Source: Dehalococcoidia bacterium (GTDB lineage: Bacteria; Chloroflexota; Dehalococcoidia; Lucifugimonadales; JADFKI01). Taken from it: DNA of 32,000 nucleotides. Position numbers and translations under genes: made by a program. The notes below the pieces were generated by a model. It was not told the origin of the DNA. It ran no database searches and saw nothing but the letters and a program-made list of their open reading frames with translations. The DNA is taken from the NCBI GenBank assembly GCA_965207465.1, contig OZ242283.1, positions 2,022,248 through 2,054,247 of the forward strand. The letters are read 5' to 3'. Positions 1,786 through 29,608 of the stretch are shown in pieces (position 1 is the stretch's first letter; every line of letters begins with the position of its first letter).

Positions 1786-2025
1786 GGGATCGGACTCGAC
1801 GGATTGGTGAGCAAGTTTCCCGTTAGGCATGGAAAGAGACCCCTTTGAATCGGTCTTAGACATCTCCAATTCTAAGGGCGGCTCTCCCTTCCCTCAATGC
1901 TCTATCAGTTCCTACACTACCGAAACAGTTCCTCCTGGGGGTATTGACACGAGAGAGGGCTTATGATGCTATATAGTGTCTTGCGTGATTGGAAATCGCA
2001 TGCAACAAGCCGAGAGGAAAGACCG

Positions 2026-3195
2026 ATGAGCAAACGGAACGAGGAACAACGGCGAGAAAAGGTAGCGGAAGGGTCGCGACTCCACGAAGTCGCAATCGTG
2101 GGCGCGGGGGCGGCCGGGCTGGGATGCGCGGTTGCTCTAAAGGAGTTTGGGATCGACGACGACGTCATAGTCCTCGATCGCCACGAGGTTGGCGCCTCGT
2201 TCCGGCGATGGCCGCAAGAGATGCGCTTCATCACGCCGTCGTTCACTTCGAACGCGTTTGGGTTGCTCGACCTCAACGCGATCATCCCCGGCACATCGCC
2301 CGCCTACATGCTCGACCGCGAACACCCCAGCGGAATCGGTTACGCGAACTACCTCGACAGAGTCGTCGAATACTACGAGCTCAATGTGAAGCTTGGCATT
2401 GATGTCTGCTCCGTCGCAGTCGAGGATGACGGAACATTCACGCTCATAACTACGGACCAGCCGGTGCGGGCGCGACACGTCATCTGGGCGGCCGGTGAGT
2501 TCCAGTACCCGAACCGCAATTCTTTCTTGGGCGCGGAATTCTGCTACCACTCGTCCGATGTCCGCACATGGCGGGATCTCGAGGGTGACCGTTTCACAGT
2601 GATTGGCGGCTACGAGAGTGCCGCAGACGCGGCCGTCTCGCTGGTGCAGTTGCAGAAGGATGTGACCGTGCTGGCGCGAATTGCGACATGGCAAAGTGAT
2701 CATCCGGACCCCAGCATCTCCCTCACCCCGTATTCCCGAGAACGTCTGGAATGGGCAGAATCCACGGGCTCCGTGGACCTCGTTGACAATGCCGACATTA
2801 CGTCGGTGCGCGTGGACGGTGACGCGTGGGTCGTCCAGGCCTCGGACGGCCGCGAGTGGGCGAGCGAGACACGCCCGATTCTTGCTACCGGCTTCAAGGG
2901 ATCTCTCAGTCACCTAGACGGCCTGATTGAGTACGATGAGGGCGGCGTCCCCGTCGTCACGGAAGAGGCCGACGAATCCACGCTTGCGCCTGGCCTGTTC
3001 ATATCCGGCCCCATACTCGAGCACCGGGGCGTAAACTTCTGCTTCATTTACAAATTCCGCCAGCGCTTCGCCGTCGTCGCCGATGCAATCGCACAGCGTC
3101 TCGGAAAGGACACCATGGAAGCCGTTGCGGCCCGTCGAGCGGCGGGGATGTACCTGGACGACCTCTCTTGCTGCGAGGAGTCCTGTGAGTGCTGA
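2026..3195 (+). CDS. FAD/NAD(P)-binding oxidoreductase (flavin-monooxygenase/CzcO-like) with a Cys-rich C-terminal tail
   Basis: Contains a GxGxxG dinucleotide fold VAIVGAGAAGLG, a second Rossmann-like FTVIGGYESAADAA, and ATGF near the C-terminus. The protein ends in LSCCEESCEC. The start is set at ATG 2026 (GAGGAAA sits 7 nt upstream); the ORF track extends to 1963. Confidence 0.8.
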   Translation: MSKRNEEQRREKVAEGSRLHEVAIVGAGAAGLGCAVALKEFGIDDDVIVLDRHEVGASFRRWPQEMRFITPSFTSNAFGLLDLNAIIPGTSPAYMLDREHPSGIGYANYLDRVVEYYELNVKLGIDVCSVAVEDDGTFTLITTDQPVRARHVIWAAGEFQYPNRNSFLGAEFCYHSSDVRTWRDLEGDRFTVIGGYESAADAAVSLVQLQKDVTVLARIATWQSDHPDPSISLTPYSRERLEWAESTGSVDLVDNADITSVRVDGDAWVVQASDGREWASETRPILATGFKGSLSHLDGLIEYDEGGVPVVTEEADESTLAPGLFISGPILEHRGVNFCFIYKFRQRFAVVADAIAQRLGKDTMEAVAARRAAGMYLDDLSCCEESCEC

Positions 3196-4330
3196 CGGAC
3201 ATGACATTGAAGTCGCGGCGCCTCCGACCATACTGCTCCTCGGACGCGCAGGCGCAGGTTCCGCAATAGCAGTCGTCCTCCTGATCCTTCCCGCTCTGCT
3301 CGCCGTGCTCGGGGCCAACCAGGCCGCCGCCTGGCTTGATCCGCTGGCCGTGGCGATCACGACACCCCTAGCCGAGAGGATAGTGGGTTGGCCGGGACCA
3401 CTCGGAGCCATGCTCGCCGGGGACTACGGACTGCTCACGATGGGGCCGCTGCTGTTCGTGTGGGCGGTCCCCACGGTGCTTGTCTATTCGGTGCTGATCA
3501 GCGTTTACAAGGCGAGCGGCCTCGCCGACCGCATCGGGACGGCGCTCCATCCCCTGTTGCGGCCGGTCGGCCTGCACGGGCGCGACCTGACACGAGTGCT
3601 AATGGGCTTCGGCTGCAACGTCCCGGCAATAGTCTCGACACGCTCCTGTTCTTCCTGCACCCGACCGACGACCGTCGGCGCGATCTCCTTCGGGTCGGCC
3701 TGCTCGTACCAGCTCGGCGCGACGCTCGCGGTTTTTGCCGCCGCCGACAAGAGCATTCTCGTTGTGCCGTATCTGGCTCTGCTCGTCGCGGCGACGCTCG
3801 TCTATACGCGTCTCATAAGTCAGCCTGCCGCGCGGTCAACACTAAACACGCTGCTCATCGAACCGCGCACCTTCCTCACCTGGCCGTCCTTCGCGGCAGT
3901 CTGGGCGGAGACACAAGGGACTGTTGGGGCATTTTTCCGCACGGCGCTCCCGACCTTCTTAGCGATCGCCATGGTTGCCTCGCTCCTCGACTGGTCTGGT
4001 GCGCTCGATGCAGTTGGGGGCTTGCTGGCACCGGCGATGGCCGTGTTCGCATTGCCGGCAGACGCGGCAATGCCGACCGCGCTTGCCGCAGTCCGCAAGG
4101 ACGGCATACTGCTGTTGGCCGAGGCAGGCACCGTCGCCTCGTTGAGTGCGGCCCAGCTTCTGGTTGCAACATTCCTCGCCGGAACGGTGCTGCCATGTCT
4201 AGTCACCGTGATCACGATTGGGCGCGAACTCGGGCTACTGTTCGCGAGCAGGCTTGTCGTGCAACAGTCCGCCTTCGCCGTCATGGTCGCCGCCACAGTC
4301 GGCTGGGCCTCAGCCGCGTTCGGCGGGTAA
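3185..4330 (+). CDS. FeoB-like permease (Gate / nucleoside-recognition domain) lacking the N-terminal GTPase domain
   Basis: Polytopic membrane protein with the FeoB gate motif GFGCNVPAIVSTRSC. No P-loop G domain is present. The start is uncertain: GTG 3185 overlaps the upstream stop (3193-3195), and the open frame runs back to 3083 inside the upstream gene. Confidence 0.7.
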   Translation: MSADGHDIEVAAPPTILLLGRAGAGSAIAVVLLILPALLAVLGANQAAAWLDPLAVAITTPLAERIVGWPGPLGAMLAGDYGLLTMGPLLFVWAVPTVLVYSVLISVYKASGLADRIGTALHPLLRPVGLHGRDLTRVLMGFGCNVPAIVSTRSCSSCTRPTTVGAISFGSACSYQLGATLAVFAAADKSILVVPYLALLVAATLVYTRLISQPAARSTLNTLLIEPRTFLTWPSFAAVWAETQGTVGAFFRTALPTFLAIAMVASLLDWSGALDAVGGLLAPAMAVFALPADAAMPTALAAVRKDGILLLAEAGTVASLSAAQLLVATFLAGTVLPCLVTVITIGRELGLLFASRLVVQQSAFAVMVAATVGWASAAFGG

Positions 4331-4603: not shown

Positions 4604-5761
4604 ATGAAGGGAAATTCGACATTGATTGAATGGCTCGGTATCAGTCACCTTTTCGAGCTTTCCGGAACGGAAGCTGTCGCGGGCTTTCTCACGCCGCTAG
4701 CGGTCTTCGCCGTTTTCTTCGTGGCGCAATTGATAGTTCCAGCAAGGCGGGTTACTGGCTATGTCATCAACCCGGAAACTGGCGAAGCCCGCAACTACCG
4801 GCTGAACGGCATTCTGGTATTCGCAATAGCGGTCGTCGTGTGGGCCACTGAGATTACCGGTATGCCACGCGACTGGTTCTATCGCTCCTCTGTCTATGCG
4901 GTGGCTGGCGGAACGGTCCTATGCCTCATATTCTCGCTGCTGGCAGTGTACAGCCGTCCACCGGGCCACATAAAGAACCCGCTTGTCGCGCTGTGGGAAG
5001 GCCGCGCCCTGGAGTTGCCGTTCTTCAACGAACGCTTCGACGTCAAGATGTACCTGTATCTCGTGGGCGGGACGATGCTGTCGCTCAACGCCATGTCCGG
5101 CGCCGCCTATCACTACGAGCTATTTGGCGAAAACTCCAATCCGGGCGTTTTCCTGTATGCGGCGTTCTTTACTTTCTATGTCTTTGACTACTTCGTCTTC
5201 GAGCGCGTGCAGCTATACACTTATGACTTGATTCATGAGCATCTCGGCTTCAAATTGATATGGGGCGGCCTCGTGGTCTATGGCTGGCTCTACATCCTCC
5301 CGCTGTGGGGCATGGCCGCTTACCCGGACCCCGGCTTCTCATCGGTATGGACGTACGTCTGGCTCATTGGAACGGCTACGCTGTTTCTGGTCGGCTGGGG
5401 CATATCGCGCGGCGCCAACATGCAGAAATATACATTCAAGCGATGGCCCGACCGTAAGTTTCTCGGAATCATCGAGCCTGAGTACATCGAGGCGGGAAAC
5501 CGCAAGATTCTGTGCAGCGGCTTGTGGGGCTATGCCCGACACTTCAACTATCTGGGCGAGGGCTTCTTCTGCTTTTCCATCGGGCTGGTATTCGGCTATT
5601 TCACCAATCCGTGGGCTTGGACATACTTTATCTTCATCGTTTCGCTGTTCATCTGGCGTCAACGACTTGACGATAGTGTATGTGCCGAGAAGTACGGCGC
5701 CGAAAAGTGGGCAGAATATCAGGAACGGGTGAAGTACCGGATTCTTCCCGGTGTCTATTAG
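4604..5761 (+). CDS. ERG4/ERG24-family sterol reductase (C-14 / C-24(28) / 7-DHCR type; specificity unresolved)
   Basis: Polytopic membrane protein. Its C-terminus LCSGLWGYARHFNYLGEGF...WRQRLDDSVCAEKYGAEKWAEYQERVKYRILPGVY aligns with the family signature seen in LBR/ERG24 (GWWGxxRHPNYLGD...RDExxCxxKYGxxWxxYxxxVPYRIxPxIY). Confidence 0.9.
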   Translation: MKGNSTLIEWLGISHLFELSGTEAVAGFLTPLAVFAVFFVAQLIVPARRVTGYVINPETGEARNYRLNGILVFAIAVVVWATEITGMPRDWFYRSSVYAVAGGTVLCLIFSLLAVYSRPPGHIKNPLVALWEGRALELPFFNERFDVKMYLYLVGGTMLSLNAMSGAAYHYELFGENSNPGVFLYAAFFTFYVFDYFVFERVQLYTYDLIHEHLGFKLIWGGLVVYGWLYILPLWGMAAYPDPGFSSVWTYVWLIGTATLFLVGWGISRGANMQKYTFKRWPDRKFLGIIEPEYIEAGNRKILCSGLWGYARHFNYLGEGFFCFSIGLVFGYFTNPWAWTYFIFIVSLFIWRQRLDDSVCAEKYGAEKWAEYQERVKYRILPGVY

Positions 5762-6011
5762 CCGGCGTCTATTGGAATCTCGACAGACTTCGCCCCTGCC
5801 GCATCCCTGCAATGAATTGCCGGTCAGACGTGCGCCACGTCGCGCTGCTCGTCAACCTGTTCCGCTTCATCCAGAGCAAGCGGCGAACTTGGCACTGTGG
5901 CGCTCATACGTTGATAAACAGCCAGGAGTCCTGCTTCATCACCGGGCTTGCTGCCGCGAGGCAGCTTGGCGCGGACTACCCATTTCGACGTTCCGGCGGC
6001 GAAGCGTTCGT

Positions 6012-7106
6012 TCAACTATTACGGAGGCTTCCTGCACGGCTCACGACTCCGGAAGGCATAGCGCCTACGCATTCACCCGGGTCAGGATAAAACTGAGAGC
6101 AGTAGCGCCTGAAGGGCATGATCTTACCGTCAGAACGGCAAAGGCGTGGGCGCGCTCGATACTGCTGGCGGCTCCAGATTACCACGTCCTGAAGCACATC
6201 CTGCCTCTGCTGAGATGCGATGAATCGATTTATGATGGGAGCGCGCAATCCCACAGGGAGAAACCCCAGACCCGCAATCATCCTCTTCGGATTGCGTATC
6301 TCCCGCGCCTGAGATACTAAGGTCATGTCGATAAGTGTGCCGTCCACCGGCGTCGCAAGCACCCACAGGCGCAAGTCCATGCCAATCGAGCGTTCGCGTA
6401 TTTCCACGTAAGAATATCCCAGCCCAAAGACAAATGTGCGCGCGGAGACGTCGAAGGTTAATTTGAAAGGGCCGGCTATGGTTCGGGTCCTCTCGAAGTC
6501 GAAGCGGGCTTCGAGGTAGGGACCCTCAACGGACGCTTCCACGACCGGGTTGACACTGTCGTAGCCGTGTACGTAACGCAGGTGCGCGAGATCAACTGAG
6601 TTCTCCGTTGTGTCCTGAGGGTGGCCGGGAAAGCGAAGTGTGTTGATCTCGAAATTGGTCCAGCCCGCCTGGTCAAGCATCCTATCAGGCAGGCTCCATT
6701 GCGGCCGTCGTCCTCCGATGCCCCACCATGCGAATATAAGCCCCAGAATTTCCTGTGTCTCATAGACTCTCAGCCTTGCGGTCTTAGGTGGCGGAGCAAA
6801 GGGCGTGGCGACGCATTGTCCGGTCGCATCGAATTCGTAGCCGTGGAAAGGGCATACAAGTTTGCCGTCGCATACACGTCCTCCGGCGGCCGGTCCGAGG
6901 TCGGCGCCGAGGTGAGGGCAGTAGGCGTCGGCGACACAGACGCGCCCACTCTCGTCGGCCCAGACAATGACGTTCTCGCCCATCCAGGTCTTCTGGATGA
7001 GCTTCGCCCTCAGTACAGCCTCACGAGTCGAGACGAAATACCATCCCTCCGGGAAGGGAGATGGTGACTCAGCGTAGGTGAATTCTCTCCGTCCGGTCAC
7101 CATCAT
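6012..7106 (-). CDS. Rieske [2Fe-2S] non-haem-iron oxygenase, KshA / Neverland (cholesterol 7-desaturase)-like
   Basis: Rieske motif DAYCPHLGADL...(17 aa)...CPFHGYEF. Mononuclear iron motif ENSVDLAHLRYVH (DxxHxxxxH). Its length of 364 aa is typical of KshA-class single-subunit oxygenases. Confidence 0.88.
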   Translation of the reverse strand: MMVTGRREFTYAESPSPFPEGWYFVSTREAVLRAKLIQKTWMGENVIVWADESGRVCVADAYCPHLGADLGPAAGGRVCDGKLVCPFHGYEFDATGQCVATPFAPPPKTARLRVYETQEILGLIFAWWGIGGRRPQWSLPDRMLDQAGWTNFEINTLRFPGHPQDTTENSVDLAHLRYVHGYDSVNPVVEASVEGPYLEARFDFERTRTIAGPFKLTFDVSARTFVFGLGYSYVEIRERSIGMDLRLWVLATPVDGTLIDMTLVSQAREIRNPKRMIAGLGFLPVGLRAPIINRFIASQQRQDVLQDVVIWSRQQYRARPRLCRSDGKIMPFRRYCSQFYPDPGECVGAMPSGVVSRAGSLRNS

Positions 7107-7320
7107 TCATCGCCTCTCAACCGGAATCCCGATCGAACTGCTGCTTTTGTGGACTCCAATGTCGTCGCGTTCTCCAAGTACAGACAATCCAAGAAGTGTA
7201 GGTTCCACGTTCCCGGGCCAGCGATTTTCGGGTTTCAGTTTCCTGTTTAGCAAAGCGGATGAGCAGCGGTAGATAAGGATTCGAGGTCGATACGCACCCG
7301 AACTTACTATTAGTTTAAGG

Positions 7321-7367
7321 TCATGCAGCGTCATGCAGCTCGCACCTTTATAGTACCCTTATAGTCC
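7321..7367. promoter_or_regulatory. Direct repeats in the Rieske/P450 divergent intergenic region (possible operator or promoter elements)
   Basis: Tandem 10-mers TCATGCAGCG/TCATGCAGCT (7321-7340), followed by TTATAGT at 7348-7354 and 7359-7365 (11-bp phasing). They sit in the relatively AT-rich 317-nt gap between two divergent genes. Confidence 0.2.
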
Positions 7368-7423
7368 TTTCCACGACTAAATCGCTAGGGTATCCTTGTT
7401 ACCAATAAGTCCAATACATCAGG

Positions 7424-9475
7424 ATGACGCATGGAAAGGCGAGACTGATGACTCTCTTAATGGAAGGTGTGACGACTCAGCCTCTGAGCTTGCCCGAAGA
7501 ACTCATTCTGATGCTTCTAAATGAGGAGACGGGCTACTTCCATCAGGTCCCGGGCTGGGATTTGAACTGCGCCGTCATCGGAGCCGTGCTTGCGGAACTC
7601 TCGCTCGTATCCTGCATTGACACGGATAGGGATTCCCTCATTCTTCTGGACGATACGGAAGTGGGAGACCCTGTACTCGATCCTATTCTCAAGCAAATTG
7701 TGGCGGAATCTGAGCAGCACAACGCCCAGTACTGGATCGAGCGGCTCGCTCCCCGCGCGGAGTCGATCATTGACTTGACACTGAATCGCCTCGTTGAACT
7801 TGACATCCTCGAGCACCATGACGGCGAGTTCTGGACGTTATCCCGGACTGTCGGCGGGGGCAACCGCGGTGCCGACGGCGAAGACGGCAGCGCGGTGGAG
7901 TTCATTGCCTCTCGCATCAGAAGAGTGCTTTTCAACAACGTGATCCCCTACCCGAGAGAGGTCGTCATCATCTGCCTCCTCAAAACGTGCGATGTGCTGC
8001 GGTTCATATTCCAGCTCGATGACGAGGTGGAGGCGCGCATCGAGGCAATCTCAAATATCGACCTGATAGGCCGCGCCATCACGAATGCGGTAACTCAGAA
8101 CCTCGCCGGTCCCTTGCTTCGACGCTCCGGCCTTACCAGGAAAATACCGGTCGTCTCCCTGAGTAAGTTGCTGTTCAATCCGCATGTTCGCAGCGGAAAC
8201 GTCCCCGCGCTTTTCGCGGACCTGGCGCGAGAGTACGGCCCTGTCTTCGAGTTACGCCCTCCGTTCGTCGAGCCGATGATTATCCTGGCAGGGGCAGAGA
8301 CGAATCGCTGGGTGCATCGACAAGGACGCTTGCACCTGAGAACCAGGGACTACTTTGCCGATTTCGAGAAGGTCTATGGCGCGTCTGGAGTATTGCCCTC
8401 TCTGGACGGGGCGGACCATTTCCGGCTCCGCAAGTCGATGTCGTCGGCATATTCTCGCGGCAGGCTGATGGGGCAGATGGACCAGCTCATTCATCATGTG
8501 CGGAATCACATGGCAGACTGGACGGTTGGAGACACCTACCCCGCAACGCGCATGTGCCGCCGAATGGTAAACTCGCAGATTTCTCCCCTCTTTGTCGGTG
8601 TTGAATCCCAGGACATATTTGACGATTTGGCGGAGTACAAGGAGCGGGCACTTAGCACGCACATCGTGAAGGCGCTGCCCAAGTTCATGCTGCAAACTCC
8701 GGGCATGAGACGCCGCGCGAAATCGGTGGACACATTGCTGGAACGGATACAGAGCGTGCATACGCCTGCCCAGCGGGCTGACGCTTCCCGAAACCTTGCG
8801 GACGACATTCTGAGTCTGCACGCGAGCGACCCGCAGTTCTTCCCGGAGTCCAACCTACGCTTCGCTCTTTCGGCCGCGCTGATTGCCAGCGTGTACCTCG
8901 GCGACGCGTTCAGCTTCGCGCTGTACGCCATGGTTTCGCAGCCGGACCTCTACGCGAGAATCCAAGAAGAGGCCGATGCCCTTTTCGAGAATGGCGATCC
9001 GAATCCAGAGGACCTCACTCCGTCCTCGATTGATGTGACCCACCGCTTCCTTATGGAGAGCCTGCGACTCTACCCGATAGTGCCGGTGTCCATGCGGCAT
9101 GTGATGAATTCGTGCGTGGTCGAGGGCTACGAACTGCCGGTGGGGGCGAGGCTCGTTATCGCTCAGGCGGCGACGCATTACATGGACGAGTTCTTCCCAG
9201 ACTCAACCACATTCGACATCGACCGATACCTGCCTCCGCGCAACGAGCATCACAATCCCGGCTATGCGCCTTACGGACTGGGCACGCATATATGCCTCGG
9301 CTCCCGGTGGATGGAAACGCAACTTGCCGTCAATGTGCTTATGGTCGCGCACTACTTCACGCTAAGAGTGTCACCCGAAGACTACAAGCTCAAGTTCAGT
9401 CCGCTGCCATCCTCGAAGCCGAGCAAGAAGCTGAAGTTCCGCGTCGCGGAGCAGCGGCACGAGATGAACTTCTAA
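7424..9475 (+). CDS. Fusion protein: N-terminal GPP34/GOLPH3-like domain plus C-terminal cytochrome P450
   Basis: Residues ~20-225 fit the GPP34 pattern: LSLPEELILMLLNEETGYF..., AVIGAVLAELSL, GDPVLDPILKQI, REVVIICLLKTCDVLRFIF. Residues ~240-683 are a P450, with the K-helix ESLRLYP (ExxR) and the haem-thiolate loop YAPYGLGTHICLGSRW (FxxGxxxCxG). Alternative starts exist at 7448 and 7460. Confidence 0.88.
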   Translation: MTHGKARLMTLLMEGVTTQPLSLPEELILMLLNEETGYFHQVPGWDLNCAVIGAVLAELSLVSCIDTDRDSLILLDDTEVGDPVLDPILKQIVAESEQHNAQYWIERLAPRAESIIDLTLNRLVELDILEHHDGEFWTLSRTVGGGNRGADGEDGSAVEFIASRIRRVLFNNVIPYPREVVIICLLKTCDVLRFIFQLDDEVEARIEAISNIDLIGRAITNAVTQNLAGPLLRRSGLTRKIPVVSLSKLLFNPHVRSGNVPALFADLAREYGPVFELRPPFVEPMIILAGAETNRWVHRQGRLHLRTRDYFADFEKVYGASGVLPSLDGADHFRLRKSMSSAYSRGRLMGQMDQLIHHVRNHMADWTVGDTYPATRMCRRMVNSQISPLFVGVESQDIFDDLAEYKERALSTHIVKALPKFMLQTPGMRRRAKSVDTLLERIQSVHTPAQRADASRNLADDILSLHASDPQFFPESNLRFALSAALIASVYLGDAFSFALYAMVSQPDLYARIQEEADALFENGDPNPEDLTPSSIDVTHRFLMESLRLYPIVPVSMRHVMNSCVVEGYELPVGARLVIAQAATHYMDEFFPDSTTFDIDRYLPPRNEHHNPGYAPYGLGTHICLGSRWMETQLAVNVLMVAHYFTLRVSPEDYKLKFSPLPSSKPSKKLKFRVAEQRHEMNF

Positions 9476-9505
9476 CGCGCCATAAGAGCGAAGACTTGCG
9501 TACTA

Positions 9506-9537
9506 GCCCTTCGACAAGCTCAGGGCGAACGGAAAAG
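9506..9537 (+). repeat. Dispersed 31-nt repeat, copy 1 (GCCCTTCGACAAGCTCAGGGCGAACGGAAAA)
   Basis: Matches 25142-25172 with a single mismatch over the first 30 nt. Both copies lie just downstream of a stop codon. Confidence 0.7.
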
Positions 9538-9590
9538 AGGCGTTATGCAACAACCCCCCAAAAGCCTGCCCTGCGAACTGTGCCTGAGGG

Positions 9591-10643
9591 CTAAAGGGGT
9601 TTACGAGCCAGAAAGCAGTAGAGCGGCGTGAATATCCCTGCCCTGCCGCCCGCGACATAGGCTTTAGCGGTACGGTCCATCAAGCCTATGACATCCGCGG
9701 AGCCTTTCGGAAACACTCTTACCACCTCGGCAAGCCTGGCTGCCCCTATCAACGACTTGCGGCCGAGAGGAGTTCTACGCAGGGCGCTGCCTAGCGTTCC
9801 GCGCCGAGTTTCCATGGGCTGATACCAAGGTGTGGTCGGCCCGTCCTCCTCGACGGCGTAGTCTCTCCCCTCAACGACCTGAAATCCCGCCGCTTCGAGC
9901 GCCAAGTTCACCTCGCCGATCGTCTCTATATCCCTGAGGGCGATGCCGCGCATCAGCTCCCGCTTGATGGCGCGATGCCGACTGTCGCCGGTGTCGAAGT
10001 CATCCGTCATGCACATTTCCTGACCCCAGAAGAGCGCTCCGGGTTTCAGCACGCGGTATATCTCCGCGAACGCGCCTGCCTTGTGCGGCGCATGGCAGGT
10101 CGATTCAATCGCGTAGCCCCCGTCAAAGGCGCAGTCCTCGACGGCGCCCATGTCCATGAAACTGCACGCAAGGTAGTCCATCAGGTGGTCAAGCCCCGCC
10201 TCGGCGTTCAACGACTTCGCCTTGTCCAGCTGGATTTCGCTGTTATTCAGCCCCACTACCCTAACGCCGGCCTCCCGCGCTACACGGCGCATCGGGCCGC
10301 CGATGCCGCAGCCAATATCAATGACTGTCATGCCCTCTCGCAACTCCAACTTGTCAATCATCAGCCGTTGATGCCGGACTTTGGAGTCTTCCAGACTTTC
10401 CCGGGGCGACAGCGGCGCGAAGTGCAGGGACTCACCCCAGCCGAACACCATGAACTCGCTGCAAAGGTCGTAGTATTCCCTGACGGTTTCGGCGTGGTCG
10501 TATGCCGTCGCGTTCTTATCTTCCAGGCTCGCCCTGTCAGTCCAGCCGTCGAATTCTCTCACGCGACGGTGAGTGTCGGAGCCGTGGTACGCGGACTTCA
10601 GTCCCCTGGACAGTTCACGGAGTTGCGGGAAACTTTTCAACAT
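9591..10643 (-). CDS. Sterol C-24 methyltransferase (ERG6/SMT family)
   Basis: Near-colinear motif match to yeast ERG6. [21 protein letters not shown] corresponds to [56 protein letters not shown] corresponds to [63 protein letters not shown] corresponds to [26 protein letters not shown]. The C-terminal sterol-MT domain (PWYQPM ... [19 protein letters not shown]) is also present. Confidence 0.93.
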   Translation of the reverse strand: [350 protein letters not shown]

Positions 10644-10670
10644 GTAGGATGACCTTACGGAGCGTGCCGC

Positions 10671-13172
10671 CTATGATGCGCTCTCGCCGCTCTCGTGTCT
10701 CAGATGCACTTCCTCAATCGTCACATCAAGATCGTTCCACATGCGTTCGATGGAAGAGCGCAGCCGCATGTTCTGGTACGCGCCCCATACGACCATGGCA
10801 GGGAGAACGACAAGAATGGCGACGACCAGCGAATAGACGATAGTGATTGTCGCCGTGATGCCGAATTGCTGGGACGCAGCGAGCGGAGAGGCTATCAGCA
10901 CTCCGAATCCCAAAGCGGTCGTCAGCGCGGAGCCAAGCAGCGCCGAGCCGGTAGTCGCAAGGGTTCGGATTGCCGCCCTCTCCGGGTTTCGCAGGCGGAA
11001 GTATTCCTCCCGGTAGCGATGAATTACATGTATGGTGTAGTCCACGCCAATGCCGATAGACAGCGCCGTGATGATGGATGTAACCAGTGTGTAGGGAATA
11101 TCCAGCAGCGCCATCGTTCCCAGCACGCAGATAAGCACGAAGACGATTGGCCCCACCGCGACGAGTCCCAGCGCAGGCTGTCGGAGCGTAACCCAGAAGA
11201 AGATTGTGAGGATGCCGAGCGCCACCGCGATGGTCGTGCTGATTGCCTCCGTCTGTCCATCCGTTATCTGATCGGTCACAGCGACAGCGACAATTTCGCC
11301 GGAAATCGCGGTGATCGTGCTGTCTTCACCAAACCAGAGGTCCTCGGTCTCCTCCTGGATCATCCTCGACTGCTCGGGATCACCCAGATAGGTCGGAAAC
11401 TGGAGCAGCATTGTGTCAATGCCGTTCGGATCGTTAATCAGGAAGTGCGCCAGACCCGGTTCCCTTTCTACCAGCTTGTCAAGGACTTGCTGCATCTTTT
11501 GCCGGTCGAGTTCCACCCCGGAGGATGCTTCGTGGAAGAGCGCTTCAATTTCTGGATCGTAGTTGTCACCCGGCTCTCCTGAGTCGTCGATCCAGTCTTG
11601 CAGGTGCGAGTAGTATGAGGTCTGGATCGGCCCTGCCGCCGCCCGCGGGCGACGACTTTCGTCGTCGAAAGCGGCCGTGAGGTCTTGAATGTTCAGAAGG
11701 GTTCGAGTGTCCGTAGCCTCAGCCTTTACCAGCAGGCTGGCGACCTCGGTAGAGCCGCCGACTGCCGCCTCAAGCGTGTCCATGTCCTCCACCACACTAC
11801 CGCCTCTCGGCAGGATGTCGCGTATGCTGAATTCGGACTTAAGCCCGGTCGCGGCGAAGCCAAGCCCGACCGTAATAAGGACGACGGCCACGATGTATGG
11901 TGCGGGCCAGCGCGTGACCCATCTCCCCAGCTGCTCCGCCAGTGAGCTGATGCCGGGCAAGGCGTTCGCCATGGGACGGGGAGGCTTCAAGGTGCCGCGC
12001 GATTCCCGGCGGCGGTCGATGATTGTGCGGCCCGCCGGTATAAGCGTCAGCATTACTATCAGACTCATTCCCACGCCAAGCCCCGCGACGATGCCGAAGT
12101 CGCCAATCACGCCGATTGGCGAGAACAGGGTTGCCAGCAGGCTCACGATAGTCGTAACGGCGGCCAGCGTCAGCGGGACTGTGACGTTTCGCAGTCCGAC
12201 ACGCACCGCTGCCAGGACCGGCTCGCCCTCAAGCCGCTGCTCACGGTAGTGGGAGACCGCCTGGATGGCGTAGTCCACAGTCAGGCTTATAATGATGACG
12301 GGAACCATAGCGGTGAGCGAACTAGGCGGGCCTATCAGCCCCAACCCGTTCGGCCCAAGCCAGCCTTCCGCCCCGACGATCCATGTCAGCGAAATTATCA
12401 GTCCCGCCAGAGTCAGCAGCATGTCCGACAGCGTGCGCATGAATACCAGCAGCAGCACGGCAATCAGCAGCAGCGCCAGCCCTATCAACGGCGCCATGCC
12501 TGTCTCAGTCGCTTCCCTGTACTCGTCCTCCACAATCGTCGGCGATAGGCTGCTCACACTCAGAGAGCCTTGACTGTCCGCCGCCAGCTCGTTAATACGG
12601 CGTTCCGCGTCCTTCACCCTCTCGTCGCCTGTGTCAGTCAGCCGTATGTTCGCGATGGCGACCGGTGTGCCGTCATCATCAGTTCCGGTCATCGCGTCGA
12701 TTGCGGCCTGAATCTGCGGGATGCTCCGGACGGCATCTATTTCAGCCTGAGTGATCCCCTCCAGACTCTGCCTTTGCAGCGCGGCTTGGACCAGGAACGA
12801 TGGAGAGATGATCGGATCGGATGGCACCAGCAGCCCGCCCGTACCTGTACCACCCACCCCCGGGTCCGTGGCGATGGCGTTGATCAGTGCGCTCATCTGT
12901 GAGATGCCGCCGGGTGTCAGAGCGTTCCCGCGGAAGATAAGCGTTACGATGCTGACATCACCGGATTCGCCGAACAGTTCGTCTATTTCCTCAGTCGCGG
13001 TGGCAACGGCGTGTCCGGGCGGAAGGAAGGCGACATCCGCCCCTTCAGTCGGCGGCGCGCGAAAGGTAGTTCCCGCAGCCAGCAGAACGGTTATCGCTAT
13101 CAGGACGATGATCGTGATATACGGACGAGCCGTGACGAGCCGGCTGAAATTGAAGAGAATCTGATTCATCAT
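10671..13172 (-). CDS. MMPL/RND-superfamily lipid exporter (HpnN-like, sterol-sensing-domain-type fold)
   Basis: 833 aa with a pseudo-twofold architecture: TM1, a ~190-aa loop, TM2-6, then TM7, a ~190-aa loop, TM8-12. Duplicated motifs LTVDYAIQAVSHYRE and IGVDYTIHVIHRYREE are typical of MMPL/HpnN proteins. It ends 28 nt upstream of the SMT gene on the same strand. Confidence 0.9.
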   Translation of the reverse strand: MMNQILFNFSRLVTARPYITIIVLIAITVLLAAGTTFRAPPTEGADVAFLPPGHAVATATEEIDELFGESGDVSIVTLIFRGNALTPGGISQMSALINAIATDPGVGGTGTGGLLVPSDPIISPSFLVQAALQRQSLEGITQAEIDAVRSIPQIQAAIDAMTGTDDDGTPVAIANIRLTDTGDERVKDAERRINELAADSQGSLSVSSLSPTIVEDEYREATETGMAPLIGLALLLIAVLLLVFMRTLSDMLLTLAGLIISLTWIVGAEGWLGPNGLGLIGPPSSLTAMVPVIIISLTVDYAIQAVSHYREQRLEGEPVLAAVRVGLRNVTVPLTLAAVTTIVSLLATLFSPIGVIGDFGIVAGLGVGMSLIVMLTLIPAGRTIIDRRRESRGTLKPPRPMANALPGISSLAEQLGRWVTRWPAPYIVAVVLITVGLGFAATGLKSEFSIRDILPRGGSVVEDMDTLEAAVGGSTEVASLLVKAEATDTRTLLNIQDLTAAFDDESRRPRAAAGPIQTSYYSHLQDWIDDSGEPGDNYDPEIEALFHEASSGVELDRQKMQQVLDKLVEREPGLAHFLINDPNGIDTMLLQFPTYLGDPEQSRMIQEETEDLWFGEDSTITAISGEIVAVAVTDQITDGQTEAISTTIAVALGILTIFFWVTLRQPALGLVAVGPIVFVLICVLGTMALLDIPYTLVTSIITALSIGIGVDYTIHVIHRYREEYFRLRNPERAAIRTLATTGSALLGSALTTALGFGVLIASPLAASQQFGITATITIVYSLVVAILVVLPAMVVWGAYQNMRLRSSIERMWNDLDVTIEEVHLRHESGESAS

Positions 13173-13550: not shown

Positions 13551-13564
13551 ATTGGCATGCCAAT
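13551..13564. promoter_or_regulatory. Perfect 14-bp palindrome ATTGGCATGCCAAT upstream of amidase 1 (possible operator)
   Basis: Read directly from the sequence. It lies 68 nt upstream of ATG 13632 and shares CCAAT/ATTGG half-sites with the inverted repeat at 13229-13244. Confidence 0.25.
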
Positions 13565-13631
13565 AGGTCGGGGCTATCGTCGTAACAGATTCACCGCAGA
13601 CCAGGCCGGAAGAGAGACAGGAGAGCGCACT

Positions 13632-15032
13632 ATGGCAGACATCATTTACGCATCGGCTAAGACTATGGCTCAGGCGATTCAGGACAAAGAAGTGTCGGCG
13701 GTCGAACTGGTGGACGCGCACCTGGCGCGTATCGAAGAGGTGAACCCGACAATCAACGCGGTTGTGACGCTCGCCGCGGAAAGAGCGCGGGCCGAGGCGC
13801 AAGAAGCCGACGACGCTCTTGCGCGGGGCGACAGCAAGGGCGCGCTGCACGGCGTTCCGTTCACGCTGAAGGACTCGATAGACACAGAGGGCGTAGTTAC
13901 GACCGGCGGCACGCTAGGCCGCAAGGACTTCGTGCCCGATGCCGATGCCACAGTCGCCGCAAGGCTCAGAGCGGCTGGTGGCATATTGCTGGGCAAGTCG
14001 AACACGCCGGAGCTGACGCTTGCCGCAGAGACCGACAACCTGGTCTATGGACGAACGAACAACCCGTACAACGTCGAGCGCACGACAGGCGGGAGCAGCG
14101 GGGGCGCGGGGGCTATCGTGTCATGCGGGGGCGCGGCATTCGACATAGGCAGCGACACAGGCGGCAGCGTGCGCTATCCGGCTCATTTCTGCGGCATCGC
14201 GGGGCTGAAGCCGAACTCCGGTAGAGTGCCGCGCACGGGGCACATCGTGTCGCACAGCATGGGCGCGGTGGATTCGCTGACGCAGAACGGGCCGATGGCG
14301 CGGTATGTCGAAGACCTTGCGCTGATTCTGCCTATCATATCGGGGCCGGACTGGAGCGACCCGTTCATCGTGCCAGTGCCTCTAGGCGATCCTGCGGACG
14401 TGGACATTAGCAGTCTGCGAATTTGCTTCTACACGGACAACGGGATAGGCACGCCGACCGATGAGACTATCGCTGCTGTGCGCTCGGCTGTCGCGGCTCT
14501 GGCGGACACGGGCTGCTCGATAGTAGAAGATGTACCTTCGATCATCGCGGAGAACCCGGAAATCTCCAACAAGCTGTCGGGCGGCGACGGCAGGGTATGG
14601 ACGCAGCGGCAGCTGGATAAGTGGGGCACTACGGAGATATTCCCATATCTGGAGCGTCGGATTGCCAGGGCGTCAGAGGAGTTCGAGGTGGAAGTGGGAG
14701 ACTTTACGGCTATGCTGGAACATGTGGATAGCTTCCGCAGCACGATGCTGGGCTTCATGCAGGACTACGATGTCATAGTCTGCCCTGTGGCGGCATTCCC
14801 TGCCCAGCCGCACGGAGAGTCGCTTGAGGACAGGAACCAGCCGGGCATGAGCTACACGGCGACATACAACATCACGGGCTGGCCATCGACCGTCATACGG
14901 GGCGGCACATCGCCGGAAGGGTTGCCTATCGGAGTGCAGGTTGTGGCGCGGCCGTGGCGCGAGGATGTGTCGCTGGCGGTGGCGCAGTATCTTGAGGGCG
15001 TGACCGGTGGGTGGGTGAAGCCGCCGATTTAG
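13632..15032 (+). CDS. Amidase-signature (AS) family amidase, paralogue 1
   Basis: Catalytic Lys context PFTLKDSIDT, GGSSGGAGA, and nucleophile context GSDTGGSVR. The start is set at MADIIYASAK by homology with paralogues 2 and 3 (GGAGAG upstream); the ORF track extends to 13557. Confidence 0.9.
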   Translation: MADIIYASAKTMAQAIQDKEVSAVELVDAHLARIEEVNPTINAVVTLAAERARAEAQEADDALARGDSKGALHGVPFTLKDSIDTEGVVTTGGTLGRKDFVPDADATVAARLRAAGGILLGKSNTPELTLAAETDNLVYGRTNNPYNVERTTGGSSGGAGAIVSCGGAAFDIGSDTGGSVRYPAHFCGIAGLKPNSGRVPRTGHIVSHSMGAVDSLTQNGPMARYVEDLALILPIISGPDWSDPFIVPVPLGDPADVDISSLRICFYTDNGIGTPTDETIAAVRSAVAALADTGCSIVEDVPSIIAENPEISNKLSGGDGRVWTQRQLDKWGTTEIFPYLERRIARASEEFEVEVGDFTAMLEHVDSFRSTMLGFMQDYDVIVCPVAAFPAQPHGESLEDRNQPGMSYTATYNITGWPSTVIRGGTSPEGLPIGVQVVARPWREDVSLAVAQYLEGVTGGWVKPPI

Positions 15033-15039
15033 AGGTGGA

Positions 15040-15068
15040 CTTACATGGATGGACAGGATGGAGGAGAT
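15040..15068 (+). repeat. Junction motif copy J2 (CTTACATGGATGGACAGGATGGAGGAGAT)
   Basis: Begins 8 nt after the amidase 1 stop and is followed directly by the 101-bp tandem array. Confidence 0.65.
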
Positions 15069-15071
15069 ATA

Positions 15072-15328
15072 TCACCCTCATCCCTTGTCCGCACAGGGGC
15101 AGGCTCTAGCCTTCCCCCATCAAGGGCTTAGCGGGGTATGTATTGAGAATAAGAGGGATTGCGGTTGCGATTTCACCCCCATCCCCTGTCTGCACAGGGG
15201 CAGGCTCTAGCCTTCCCCCATCAAGGGCTTAGCGGGGTATGTATTGAGAATAAGAGGGATTGCGGTTGCGATTTCACCCCCATCCCCTGTCTGCACAGGG
15301 ACAGGCTCTAGCCTTCCCCCATCAAGGG
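15072..15328 (+). repeat. Tandem repeat, 101-bp unit x ~2.5, derived from the double-hairpin REP-like element
   Basis: Units start at 15072, 15173 and 15274 (TCACCCCCATCCCCTGTCTGCACAGGGGCAGGCTCTAGCCTTCCCCCATCAAGGGCTTAGCGGGGTATGTATTGAGAATAAGAGGGATTGCGGTTGCGATT). Copies 2 and 3 are near-identical. The last unit resolves into the full hairpin CCTTCCCCC-ATCAA-GGGGGAAGG (15312-15334). Confidence 0.9.
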
Positions 15329-15420
15329 GGAAGGGACTCTGAGCAGCATTTTAAGCATTTACCTACCCCTGTCAGCCTGTCAAGGGGGAAGGGACGAATT
15401 AGAGACACAGGATCGTGATT

Positions 15421-16818
15421 ATGAGCGAGATTATCTATGCGTCGGCGAAGAGTATGGCGCGGGCGATTCGGGACAAGGAAGTGTCGGCGGTGGAGCTGGT
15501 GGAGGCGCATCTGGCGCGCATCGAAGAGGTGAATCCGGCTCTGAATGCGGTGGTGATGCTGGCGGCAGAGCAGGCGCGTGCGGAAGCGGCTGAGGCTGAT
15601 GCCGCTCTCGCGCGGGGAGCCCACAAGGGGACGCTTCACGGGGTGCCGTTTACACTGAAGGACTCGATTGACACTGAGGGCGTGGTTACGACGGGCGGGA
15701 CGATGGGGCGCAAGGACTTCGTGCCGGACGCGGATGCGACGGTGGCGGCGCGGCTGCGGGCTGCGGGCGGCATACTGCTAGGCAAGACGAACACACCTGA
15801 AATCACATACGCGGGCGAGACGGACAACCTGATCTTCGGGCGGACGAATAACCCATTCGACCTTGACCGAATGCCCGGGGGCAGCAGCGGCGGAGCGGGG
15901 GCTATCGTGTGCTGCGGCGGAGCGGCGTTCGATATCGGCAGCGACACGGGCGGCAGCATACGAGGTCCGGCGCACTACTGCGGCATTGCGGGGATAAAGC
16001 CGAACTCCGGGCGTGTACCACGCACAGGGCATATTGTGCCGCATAGCTTCGGCGCCGCCGATTCGCTGACTCAGAATGGGCCGATGGCGCGGTATGTCGA
16101 GGACCTTGCGCTCGTCCTGCCAGTCATATCGGGGCCTGACTGGGACGATCCGCATATCGTGCCCGTGCCGCTTGGCGACCCGGCGGATGTGGATATCAGC
16201 GGGCTGCGGGTGGCTTTTTACGATTACAACGGCGTGAATATGCCGACTGCGGAGATCCAGGCGGCGGTGCGAACCGCTGCTTCGTCGCTCGACGATGTCT
16301 GCGCCTCGGTGGAGGAGGACCTGCCACAAGCAATCCCTGACAATCCTGAGATAAACAGTCAACTGAGCCAGGGAAACGGACAGGCAGGCGCTCAGCGGTT
16401 ACTGGAGAGGTACGGCACTACTGAGACGCACGCATGGATTACCCGTCTCCTGGAGAGGGCGAGCGAGAAAATGGTCTCGGTGCAGGAGTACACGGCAGTT
16501 CTGGAGAATGTCGATGCCTACCGCAGCGAGATGCTGGGCTTCATGCAGAACTACGATGTCATCGTATGCCCGGTGTCATCGTATGCCGCATTGCCGCACG
16601 GAGAATCAATGTTCAACGAAAAGTACACAGGGATAGGCTACATGGCGACATACAATATCACGGGCTGGCCCTCGACCGTGGTGCGCGCGGGCACTTCGCC
16701 GGAAGGCCTGCCCATCGGCGTGCAGGTTGTGGCGCGTCCGTGGCGTGAGGACGTGTCTCTCGCGGTGGCGCAGTATCTTGAAGGCGCGCTTGGCGGGTGG
16801 GTGAAGCCGCCATTGTAG
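15421..16818 (+). CDS. Amidase-signature family amidase, paralogue 2
   Basis: Same motifs as paralogue 1 (PFTLKDSIDT, GGSSGGAGA, GSDTGGSIR). Colinear with paralogues 1 and 3 over its full length. ATG 15421 is preferred over GTG 15415. Confidence 0.9.
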   Translation: MSEIIYASAKSMARAIRDKEVSAVELVEAHLARIEEVNPALNAVVMLAAEQARAEAAEADAALARGAHKGTLHGVPFTLKDSIDTEGVVTTGGTMGRKDFVPDADATVAARLRAAGGILLGKTNTPEITYAGETDNLIFGRTNNPFDLDRMPGGSSGGAGAIVCCGGAAFDIGSDTGGSIRGPAHYCGIAGIKPNSGRVPRTGHIVPHSFGAADSLTQNGPMARYVEDLALVLPVISGPDWDDPHIVPVPLGDPADVDISGLRVAFYDYNGVNMPTAEIQAAVRTAASSLDDVCASVEEDLPQAIPDNPEINSQLSQGNGQAGAQRLLERYGTTETHAWITRLLERASEKMVSVQEYTAVLENVDAYRSEMLGFMQNYDVIVCPVSSYAALPHGESMFNEKYTGIGYMATYNITGWPSTVVRAGTSPEGLPIGVQVVARPWREDVSLAVAQYLEGALGGWVKPPL

Positions 16819-16838
16819 GTGTCAGCGGTCAGGAGACT

Positions 16839-16875
16839 GGGCTAACATCGAAGGACAGGATAGACAGGATGGGAG
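16839..16875 (+). repeat. Junction motif copy J3 (GGGCTAACATCGAAGGACAGGATAGACAGGATGGGAG)
   Basis: Lies between the amidase 2 stop (16818) and the amidase 3 ATG (16883). Confidence 0.7.
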
Positions 16876-16882
16876 AAAGATA

Positions 16883-18280
16883 ATGGACGAGATTATCTAC
16901 GCATCGGCGAAGAGTATGGCGCGGGCGATTCGGGACAAGGAAGTGTCGGCGGTGGAGGTGGTGGAGGCGCATCTGGCGCGGATCGAGGAGGTGAATCCGG
17001 CTCTTAATGCGGTGGTTCAGCTTGCGACGGATCGCGCAAAGGTTGAGGCTGTGGAGGCGGATGCTGCGCTTGCGCGGGGTGAGGGCAAGGGCGCGCTGCA
17101 TGGGGTGCCGTTTACGCTGAAGGACTCGATTGATACTGAGGGCGTGGTTACGACGGGCGGAACGATGGGGCGCAAGGACTTTGTGCCTGATGCGGATGCG
17201 ACGGTTACGGCGCGGCTGCGCGCGGCGGGGGGCATACTGCTGGGCAAGACGAATACGCCGGAACTTACTTATGCGGGCGAGACGGATAATCTGGTGTATG
17301 GGCGGACGAACAACCCGTTCGACGTTAGCCGCGCACCGGGCGGCAGCAGCGGGGGCGCGGGGGCTATCGTATGCTGCGGGGGCGCGGCGTTCGACATCGG
17401 CAGCGACACGGGCGGCAGCATACGCGGACCGGCGCACTACTGCGGCATTGCGGGAATCAAGCCGAACTCAGGGCGCGTTCCGCGCACGGGGCATATCGTG
17501 CCGCACGGTCTGGGCGCACTCGACTCGCTGACGCAGAACGGGCCGATGGCGCGGTATGTGGAAGACCTTGCACTCATCATGCCGATCATATCCGGTCCCG
17601 ACTGGAGCGATCCTTTCATACCGCCGGTGACACTTGGCGACCCGGCAGATGTGGATATAAGCGGGCTGCGCGTCTGTTTCTACACGGACAACGGCGTGCG
17701 TACTCCCACTGCGGAGATAATGTCGGCGGTGCGGAATGCGGCTGCCGCGCTCGACGATGTGTGCGCGTCCGTCGAAGAGGACTTGCCGCGCGTCATTGGA
17801 GAGAATCCTGAAATAGCGGAGATGCTGCGTCAAGGGGACGGTCAGGCAGGGGCGCACCGGCTACTGGCGCAGTACGGCACGACCGAGACGCATGAATGGA
17901 TGACAAGACAGCTGGAAAAGTCTAGCGAAAGAGTCGTTCCGGTTGGCGAGTACACGGAAGTTCTAGAGCAGGTGGACGCCTATCGCAGCGCTATGCTGGG
18001 GTTCATGCAGAACTACGATGTCATTATCTGCCCGGTGTCATCGTTTGCAGCGCTCCCGCACGGACTGTCCATGACGGACGAGTACCGCTCAGGCATGAAC
18101 TATACTGGTACATACAACATCACGGGCTGGCCCTCGACCGTGGTGCGCGCGGGCACTTCGCCGGACGGCCTACCCATAGGCGTGCAGGCGGTGGCGCGTC
18201 CGTGGCGAGAGGATGTGTCGCTGGCGGTGGCGCAGTACCTCGAAGGCGCGCTCGGCGGCTGGCAGAAGCCTCCGATGTGA
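16883..18280 (+). CDS. Amidase-signature family amidase, paralogue 3
   Basis: Same motifs as paralogues 1 and 2. By eye, roughly four-fifths of its positions are identical to paralogue 2. Confidence 0.9.
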   Translation: MDEIIYASAKSMARAIRDKEVSAVEVVEAHLARIEEVNPALNAVVQLATDRAKVEAVEADAALARGEGKGALHGVPFTLKDSIDTEGVVTTGGTMGRKDFVPDADATVTARLRAAGGILLGKTNTPELTYAGETDNLVYGRTNNPFDVSRAPGGSSGGAGAIVCCGGAAFDIGSDTGGSIRGPAHYCGIAGIKPNSGRVPRTGHIVPHGLGALDSLTQNGPMARYVEDLALIMPIISGPDWSDPFIPPVTLGDPADVDISGLRVCFYTDNGVRTPTAEIMSAVRNAAAALDDVCASVEEDLPRVIGENPEIAEMLRQGDGQAGAHRLLAQYGTTETHEWMTRQLEKSSERVVPVGEYTEVLEQVDAYRSAMLGFMQNYDVIICPVSSFAALPHGLSMTDEYRSGMNYTGTYNITGWPSTVVRAGTSPDGLPIGVQAVARPWREDVSLAVAQYLEGALGGWQKPPM

Positions 18281-28830: not shown

Positions 28831-28832
28831 GC

Positions 28833-29582: not shown

Positions 29583-29608
29583 CATCGATGTACAGGATGG
29601 GGAGGATG
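29576..29608 (+). repeat. Junction motif copy J7 (GGGCTAACATCGATGTACAGGATGGGGAGGATG)
   Basis: Contains the TAA stop of the lipoprotein gene (29580-29582) and three in-frame ATGs of the MFS gene (29588, 29597, 29606). Confidence 0.7.

Follow-up and report, generated by a model that had tools for sequence, protein, structure and literature searches.

A window of 32 kb (32,000 nucleotides; contig OZ242283.1, positions 2,022,248 to 2,054,247) was analysed from the genome of a Dehalococcoidia bacterium, a Chloroflexota member of SAR202 type. Five neighbouring open reading frames (ORFs), all intact, lie at 4604-13172, where an earlier note based on the DNA alone had placed them. They encode an ERG4/ERG24-family reductase, a Rieske oxygenase, a cytochrome P450 fused to an N-terminal GPP34 domain, a sterol methyltransferase (SMT) paralogue and an RND-superfamily transporter (Table 1). 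That note had seen the signatures of sterol-acting families in all five adjacent genes, and every assignment lies above the curated Pfam threshold. We propose that the locus is one copy of a module shared horizontally among sponge symbionts, which most likely tailors and moves sterols at the bacterial membrane; we put the probability of this reading at about 0.55. The recurrent set comprises a divergent SMT paralogue, the GPP34-P450 fusion, a KshA-type Rieske oxygenase and an MMPL/HAE3-type RND transporter. A flavoprotein often belongs to the set and is absent here; an ERG4/ERG24-like reductase sometimes belongs to it and is present here.

Gene families at the locus

The methyltransferase has the class I methyltransferase core and a C-terminal Sterol_MT_C domain (Pfam PF08498; 57.4 bits, cut-off 21.7, residues 287-349). 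Over 331 residues it shares 36% identity with yeast ERG6 (E 3e-71), a value within the 35-42% span of those bacterial SMTs for which methylation of sterols has been demonstrated (PMC10070321). The length of the ERG6 sequence used and 28 numbered positions in it (25 conserved, plus 81, 83 and 249) agree with a 2025 preprint, which lists 25 residues conserved across working SMTs (bioRxiv 10.64898/2025.12.19.695621). The stretches GWGESLHF, DIGCGIGGP and IESTCHAP are legible in the translation. Region II (DxGxGxxGP) is complete, with D125, G127, G129, G132 and P133 kept both in the window protein and in 120/120 relatives, and the C-terminal G333, G352, F357 and P359 are retained as well. Altogether 22 of the 25 residues are kept, including H90, E195 and W286; the departures are T78S, F89L and L341M. 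Region I reads GWGESLHF and does not match the canonical Y81-E-Y-G-W-G-x-x-F-H-F91. The label ERG6-type SMT is therefore borne out by the overall identity and the Sterol_MT_C domain but has to be qualified by the 22/25 count, and the claim that the enzyme matches ERG6 'motif for motif' fails at Region I, where Y81M and F89L are fixed in the subfamily.

These changes were counted over the 120 closest relatives among the matches listed, all at least 76% identical. Y81M is found in 119/120, F89L in 120/120 and Ile249 in 119/120, and T78 is replaced by S, G or N. The SMT of the Nitrospira module described below largely shares these changes, whereas the canonical SMTs that lie beside an oxidosqualene cyclase (OSC) keep 25/25 residues and differ from the module SMT at positions 81, 89 and 249. 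In a published docking model the side chain of the sterol sits between residues 81 and 249. Judged by its sequence, the module SMT is a subfamily of its own, in which positions that contact the sterol side chain carry fixed changes; Met81, Leu89 and Ile249 suggest that it takes another acceptor than the canonical C-24 enzyme or works with another regiochemistry. Comparison of contig identifiers found no contig carrying this subfamily among those assayed by Brown et al. 2023 or 2025. We rejected a reading as an N-methyltransferase: the best NCBIfam match, sarcosine/dimethylglycine methyltransferase (69 vs 550 bits), covers the generic core only, whereas the ERG6 match spans the C-terminal domain too.

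The P450 gene had been described as a plain P450. Its family stands (Pfam p450, 116 bits), but the N-terminal GPP34 domain (107 bits, cut-off 29.1, residues 23-224) had been overlooked. The GPP34 family profile reaches human GOLPH3 (E 8e-4) and yeast Vps74 (2e-3) over only the first ~100 residues, and a direct comparison with GOLPH3 is weak (E 0.39). The residues of the phosphatidylinositol-4-phosphate (PI4P) pocket of human GOLPH3, which we take to be W81, R90, R171 and R174, are partly covered; only GOLPH3 residues ~56-159 align, leaving R171 and R174 outside. In this weak alignment (E 8e-4), Ile or Val stands at R90 and Val34 at W81, with an invariant Trp37 three residues off. In the P450 domain the haem loop YGLGTHICLG and the ExxR motif are present and invariant. 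Its best solved relatives, a CYP102-like enzyme and Methylococcus CYP51, score only ~80 bits. It was rejected as a CYP51 given a best CYP51 match of 81 bits, 22% identity over 140 aa to the CYP51 of the Nitrospira sterol cluster, and the I-helix ASVYLGDAFS. An AlphaFold2 model of the fusion, built with 31 close homologues, was poor (pLDDT 48, pTM 0.36, P450 domain near 30). The ORF was called at 7424-9475; the start is most likely 7448, giving 675 aa, because the homologues have this length and the exact product is in the database. We set the domain boundary at 8152/8153, an in-frame split between the Pfam matches to GPP34 and p450 (from residue 257).

The Rieske protein (Pfam Rieske 62 bits, KshA_C 82 bits) contains CPH...CPFH and DLAHLRYVH (DxxHxxxxH), so that the Rieske and mononuclear-iron sites are intact. 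Its best solved relatives are KshA enzymes (2ZYL/4QDC), at about 92 bits. It is not SdmA: it scores 35.9 bits against a cut-off of 600 and is 24% identical over 181 aa to the SdmA of the Nitrospira cluster in locus L085, which has a Rieske+VanA_C architecture in place of KshA_C, and no SdmB is paired with it in the window. A window gene at 23175-24155 (NAD-dependent epimerase/3beta-HSD family) was considered as an SdmB orthologue and rejected, as it is 35% identical to the Nitrospira-cluster SdmB over the first 131 residues only.

For the reductase, Pfam ERG4_ERG24 gives 116 bits (cut-off 27) against 28 bits for DUF1295, a stronger match than to the DUF1295/ICMT relatives. Among solved structures, the Methylomicrobium delta14-sterol reductase 4QUV is closest (E 3e-32). 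The C-terminal signature is legible in the translation as CAEKYGAEKWAEYQERVKYRILPGVY; set against the family signature, CxxKYGxxWxxY is kept and the preceding HR..RD reads WR..LD. Identity to the ERG24 encoded in the Nitrospira sterol cluster is 31%. Among named proteins the nearest are annotated 'DUF1295' or 'ERG4/ERG24 family' or are uncharacterised choanoflagellate and chytrid proteins, and none of the NCBIfam models matched the reductase. Translation may start at the TTG at 4622, giving 379 aa, the length of the homologues.

The transporter matches Pfam MMPL in two stretches (160 bits), Sterol-sensing (48 bits) and Patched (34 bits). A hydropathy scan found 12 segments with loops at 38-225 and 445-642 (~190 aa each), the 1+5/1+5 topology of RND proteins. 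It had been called an MMPL/HpnN-like RND exporter; membership of the MMPL/RND family holds but identity with HpnN does not (102 vs 752 bits and 75 vs 1100). BstA (28 vs 1400 bits) and MmpL3 (31 vs 1400) were rejected likewise, and the best NCBIfam match is the generic HAE3 model (204 bits, cut-off 352).

The transporter gene lies 27 nt upstream of the methyltransferase gene on the same strand. The methyltransferase and fusion genes are convergent, and the fusion and Rieske genes diverge from a spacer in which both promoters are presumed to lie. Over the whole locus, promoter-like sites numbered 6 against 4.3 expected, none above chance, a terminator scan gave chance level, and Rfam found no riboswitch.

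Table 1. Features of the locus (window coordinates)
Feature	Position	Strand	Length	Remarks
ERG4/ERG24-family membrane reductase	4604..5761	+	385 aa	accessory module member
KshA-type Rieske non-haem-iron oxygenase	6012..7106	-	364 aa	
Spacer	7107..7447	.	341 bp	between divergent Rieske and GPP34-P450 genes; orientation from sequence
GPP34 (GOLPH3/Vps74-like) domain, N-terminal part of fusion	7448..8152	+		Pfam GPP34
Cytochrome P450 domain of GPP34-P450 fusion	8153..9475	+		Pfam p450; not CYP51
Sterol-methyltransferase-family enzyme	9591..10643	-	350 aa	'module-type' subfamily
RND-superfamily transporter, MMPL/HAE3 type	10671..13172	-	833 aa	

Recurrence of the gene set and its sterol context

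Synteny was sampled in the best 80 of 501 SMT-matching stretches in species-representative genomes, with tblastn searches within 10 kb of the SMT gene. Near the SMT we found the RND transporter in 61 loci, the P450 in 60, GPP34 in 59, the Rieske oxygenase in 54, an amine-oxidase-like flavoprotein (~460 aa) in 38 and the reductase in 9. The linked genes have median identities of 65-77% (RND 72%, Rieske 72%, P450 74%). None of the window's eight flanking gene families was present in any of the 80 loci, so the grouping of the module genes is more than chance. The synteny in relatives that the earlier note asked to be checked therefore exists for four genes (54-61/80 loci) but not for the reductase (9/80). 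The 80 loci are almost all from metagenome-assembled genomes (MAGs) labelled Dehalococcoidia, SAR202 or Chloroflexota, with one from Acidimicrobiales and one from Dadabacteria.

Six contexts anchored on the fusion were also read. A KshA_C Rieske gene is present in all six. The stretches read include the flavoprotein gene in five of them; the remaining one, L081, has a close relative, L085, that carries it. An SMT-family gene occurs in 5/6, although the two copies in L083 are only ~40% identical to the window's and not of the module type, and an MMPL transporter stands beside the set in 4/6. In L083 (363-8261; a 4.9-Mb diderm genome) several genes come before the module: those of a tripartite AcrB-type efflux system (OEP, adaptor, ACR_tran), of an FkbM-family methyltransferase and of a small protein with a weak match to FA_hydroxylase (ERG3/ERG25 family). 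In the Dadabacteria-type variant (L091 and L079) the reductase lies directly upstream, in the order reductase-MMPL transporter-Rieske-methyltransferase. An IS110-family transposase at L079 2431-3777, next to the reductase end of this variant, is consistent with a mobile module. The module is thus a mosaic with a recurrent core, and the reductase belongs to its accessory shell.

In L081 (a Nitrospira symbiont of Ircinia ramosa), L085 (a 2.26-Mb Nitrospira-type chromosome) and the Aplysina contigs L098 and L099, the module lies right next to genes for SdmB, SdmA, ERG24, CYP51, a fusion of squalene epoxidase (SE) and OSC, and a second, canonical SMT. L085 also has an MMPL transporter with a sterol-sensing domain three genes past the OSC. 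This is the gene set of the sterol clusters described in sponge symbionts (PMC10070321). Contiguity of the module with this pathway ties it to sterols, and the Nitrospira GPP34-P450/methyltransferase/Rieske set beside SE-OSC, CYP51, ERG24, SdmA and SdmB reinforces the sterol reading of the earlier note. The Nitrospira and window proteins are 78% (P450), 72% (SMT), 64% (GPP34) and 61% (Rieske) identical, which argues for horizontal spread between phyla.

Among 241 million metagenome records scanned, 66 loci matched, at least 53 of them from metagenomes of Petrosia ficiformis, Sarcotragus foetidus and Aplysina aerophoba; the remaining 13 carry JGI identifiers of unverified source. Several MAG series among the relatives are published sponge-symbiont bins (Aplysina, Ircinia, Coscinoderma, Rhopaloeides), where we assume from the naming series that the prefixes COS and RHO stand for the last two hosts. 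For this niche the statement that bacterial sterol biology is rare does not hold, as sterol clusters occur in 115/537 Ircinia MAGs from 10 phyla (PMC9531527) and bacterial SMTs have been shown to work (PMC10070321).

The earlier observation that the window has no SE or OSC was confirmed: neither an SE-OSC homologue nor a CYP51 homologue was found in the window or in the 80 related loci. It had been left open whether the locus finishes a de novo pathway or remodels acquired sterols. Kelly et al. (2022) scored MAGs for the cluster of steroid genes (CSG: ERG24-CYP51-OSC), and four Ircinia Chloroflexota MAGs that carry the module (L017, L024, L056, L060; 89-93% complete) are listed as 'CSG present: No', while the Nitrospira MAG that gave L081 is listed as 'CSG present: Yes' and serves as a positive control (PMC9531527). 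The four listings lean towards acquired sterol. We propose that in Nitrospira symbionts the sterol is supplied by the adjacent de novo pathway; in the Chloroflexota lineage of the window its probable source is the sponge or neighbouring symbionts.

Several further features lie in the window outside the five genes. Positions 1-475 are the 3' end of a 16S rRNA gene and 949-1024 encode tRNA-Ala(TGC); protein-coding genes follow in place of a 23S gene, and thus the rRNA genes appear unlinked. Two same-strand ORFs, 1963-3195 (Pyr_redox_3 flavoprotein) and 3083-4330 (Gate-domain membrane protein), overlap by 113 nt, and the true start of the latter is probably further downstream. Directly beyond the transporter gene, 13557-18280 holds three tandem amidase paralogues (491, 467 and 465 aa; Pfam Amidase 338-358 bits), found beside the module in 0/80 relatives. 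A PIN-domain protein gene (22294-22698), just after a short ORF, likely encodes the toxin of a toxin-antitoxin pair. At 28767-31069, 15 kb from the module, a gene for an LppX/LprG-type lipoprotein precedes one for an MFS transporter, an arrangement that recalls the LprG-P55 pair for lipid export in mycobacteria. In L084 (4871-7077) and in ~21/80 loci the module has a comparable pair next to it, only ~40% identical to that of the window, and the window's pair is at most a candidate module member.

Proposed working and rival explanations

In the scheme that we favour, the SMT paralogue would methylate a sterol with an unsaturated side chain, with S-adenosylmethionine (SAM) as donor, and the reductase, where present, would use NADPH to remove a double bond that results. 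Next, ring or side chain could be hydroxylated or desaturated by the Rieske oxygenase and the P450, which general cellular ferredoxins would serve. The GPP34 domain would tether the otherwise soluble P450 to the membrane or present the lipid to it, and would not be a secreted effector. The RND pump would carry substrate or product from the cytoplasmic membrane to the outside or the reverse. The order of steps is provisional. Fusions of GPP34 to a Rieske protein, reported from two genomes (PMC11706023), fit a role of GPP34 as an adaptor for the module oxygenases.

Several observations weigh against this scheme. Adjacency to an OSC cluster is seen only in Nitrospira-type contexts. The module SMT departs at 3/25 residues kept by all working SMTs, and the authors of that list suggest that departures may mean inactivity on desmosterol or 24-methylenecholesterol (bioRxiv 10.64898/2025.12.19.695621). 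In sixteen of the 80 loci the SMT is the sole module gene, and in four of these it has sarcosine-oxidase genes as neighbours. The P450 I-helix reads ASVYLGDAFS (window 8880-8910, residues ~478-490) in place of AGxE/DTT, invariantly in 31 homologues; with the acid-alcohol pair missing, ordinary P450 hydroxylation is not assured, and the enzyme may be atypical, e.g. substrate-assisted, acting on peroxide, or isomerising. On its residues and matches the reductase is not clearly assignable to a characterised C-14, C-7 or C-24(28) sterol-reductase type, and similarity to the sterol-sensing domain is common to the RND superfamily. The main rival is that the module acts on a non-sterol lipid. This might be squalene or some other isoprenoid, linear or cyclic, or else the end group of a carotenoid or a terpenoid of the sponge. 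Methylation by the SMT-like enzyme would then take place at an isopropylidene double bond, and the oxygenases and transporter would process and export the lipid. In Botryococcus, squalene and botryococcene are known substrates of SMT-like enzymes. The lack of an OSC near the Chloroflexota module and of a sterol cluster in related MAGs, the altered Region I, the stand-alone SMT copies and the atypical P450 suit this reading, as do the terpene clusters of SAR202 sponge genomes and the flavoprotein; the latter resembles no named proteins except protoporphyrinogen oxidase and HpnE, and these only at their FAD-binding ends. We nevertheless think it unlikely: the Nitrospira-type module is contiguous with a complete sterol pathway, the SMT keeps the sterol-methyltransferase C-terminal domain and 22/25 functional residues including H90, E195 and W286, and the closest solved relatives of the reductase and the Rieske protein are steroid-acting enzymes. 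As an observation on the solo copies, that of L014 (2453-13996; 76% identical) is divergent from soxB, soxA, soxG and MTHFR and lacks further module genes within 10 kb, and three further loci are similarly arranged.

A catabolic role, in which the RND protein imports host steroid and the KshA-like oxygenase and P450 start ring or side-chain degradation for carbon, would account for the KshA_C domain and for KshA as best solved relative. It has been proposed that SAR202 bacteria attack recalcitrant alicyclic compounds, sterols among them, by oxidation, and sponges are described as hot spots of bacterial steroid catabolism (PMC5790920). A SAM-dependent C-methyltransferase and an ERG4/24-type reductase are, however, anabolic tailoring enzymes; KstD, Hsa, Fad and KshB-type genes are absent from the window and from the conserved neighbours; and the Nitrospira module is joined to a biosynthetic cluster. 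RND transporters are also typically exporters, and we regard steroid breakdown as highly improbable. The published reading concerns the fusion alone. Ferreira et al. (2025) named it 'GPP34_L' (656 proteins), found it exclusive to sponge symbionts and expressed in situ, and proposed a secreted PI4P-binding effector (PMC11706023). On this account it would be a released eukaryote-like protein that binds host PI4P and blocks phagosome maturation, and its neighbours would be unrelated. GPP34 membership is indeed solid, restriction and expression are as published, and eukaryotic GOLPH3 binds PI4P (cited in PMC11706023). Yet in all contexts read the neighbours of the fusion include enzymes dependent on SAM, NADPH and ferredoxin and a transporter of the cytoplasmic membrane. 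Outside the cell a P450 would lack the redox partners that it needs, and the fusion has no evident N-terminal signal sequence. In addition, the presumed pocket positions R90 and W81 are replaced in the weak alignment (E 8e-4). The neighbouring lipid genes were not examined in that paper, whose text mentions neither sterol, methyltransferase nor RND (PMC11706023). An effector function is, we believe, very doubtful indeed, and a role in sterol tailoring at the membrane remains the reading that we prefer.

Within the sterol reading, a bolder version is that symbionts unable to make sterols use the module to convert sterols of the host or its neighbours into the unconventional sterols of demosponges, with unusual side-chain alkylation or oxidation, e.g. 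non-C-24 methylation. We offer this speculatively and consider it rather improbable. If it were true, part of the 'sponge' sterol/sterane biomarker signature would reflect bacterial tailoring, and GPP34 would be a membrane-lipid adaptor for oxygenases and not a host effector. The module, with an SMT paralogue altered at residues in contact with the side chain, bears on the question of who makes the side-chain-modified demosponge sterols, which are used as the oldest animal biomarkers. If the module-bearing bacteria scored without a CSG do tailor sterols, they would provide a multi-enzyme example of remodelling and trafficking sterols made elsewhere. The parts have been published separately (GPP34-P450 fusion, sponge-symbiont sterol clusters, bacterial SMTs), but not their linkage; searches of the literature on SAR202/Chloroflexi with sterol methyltransferase and on GPP34 with sterol found no description of the module. 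Joining three published observations (the shared GPP34-P450, sterol-gene enrichment and working bacterial SMTs) as one module yields a testable biochemical hypothesis, offers a different role for bacterial GPP34 domains and recasts a published symbiosis marker.

Comparison with known systems

The late side-chain steps of fungi and plants (ERG6/SMT, ERG5/CYP710, ERG4) resemble the window in that an SMT, a P450 and an ERG4/24-family reductase are found together, here as adjacent genes. The window P450 and reductase are at most putative orthologues, however, the reductase is missing from most module copies, and the fungal/plant pathway has no counterpart of the module's Rieske oxygenase or flavoprotein. 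The earlier analogy between an SMT paired with an ERG4-type reductase and this pathway is therefore not established, the reductase being loosely linked (9/80 loci) and from an uncharacterised branch of its family. With the steroid Rieske enzymes KshA and Neverland/DAF-36 the window protein shares the Rieske centre, DxxHxxxxH and KshA_C; it is distant from them (about 92 bits to KshA), has no KshB-type reductase nearby and stands in an anabolic, not a catabolic, context. The transporter is, like HpnN (hopanoids), BstA (Methylococcus sterols) and MmpL3, a 12-helix, two-loop RND protein of the MMPL family adjoining lipid-tailoring genes, but it scores far below the curated cut-offs for these proteins and the BstB and BstC partners are absent.

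Coxiella and Chlamydiae provide a precedent for eukaryote-type sterol enzymes in host-associated bacteria without a cyclase, through their sterol reductases and a tested Chlamydiae SMT (PMC10070321). The window's Chloroflexota lineage would match them in having sterol enzymes without a cyclase; those are single genes in intracellular bacteria, whereas here a multi-gene module with oxygenases and a transporter occurs in sponge symbionts, which are generally regarded as extracellular. The fusion itself is identical in architecture to GPP34_L, with the same 675-aa length class and the same taxa, including Dehalococcoidia and Nitrospirota (PMC11706023). That study differs in reading it as a PI4P-binding effector and noted only P450 genes near short GPP34 genes; the partnership with the SMT paralogue, the KshA-type oxygenase, the flavoprotein, the RND transporter and the Nitrospira sterol pathway is not part of it.

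The closest known systems are the sponge-symbiont steroid clusters, namely the ERG24-CYP51-LSS clusters of Kelly et al. 2022 (PMC9531527) and the SMO-OSC/ERG11/ERG24/sdmA/sdmB/SMT clusters of Brown et al. 2023 (PMC10070321). The window differs from them in having no cyclase, epoxidase or SdmB, a P450 that is not CYP51 and a Rieske protein that is not SdmA. Its SMT belongs to a separate subfamily, its reductase is 31% identical to the cluster ERG24, and a GPP34 domain and an RND transporter are added. The module and these clusters nevertheless have in common their niche, horizontal sharing across phyla, and an SMT, a P450, a Rieske oxygenase and an ERG4/24-family reductase, and in Nitrospira-type genomes the two are physically contiguous.

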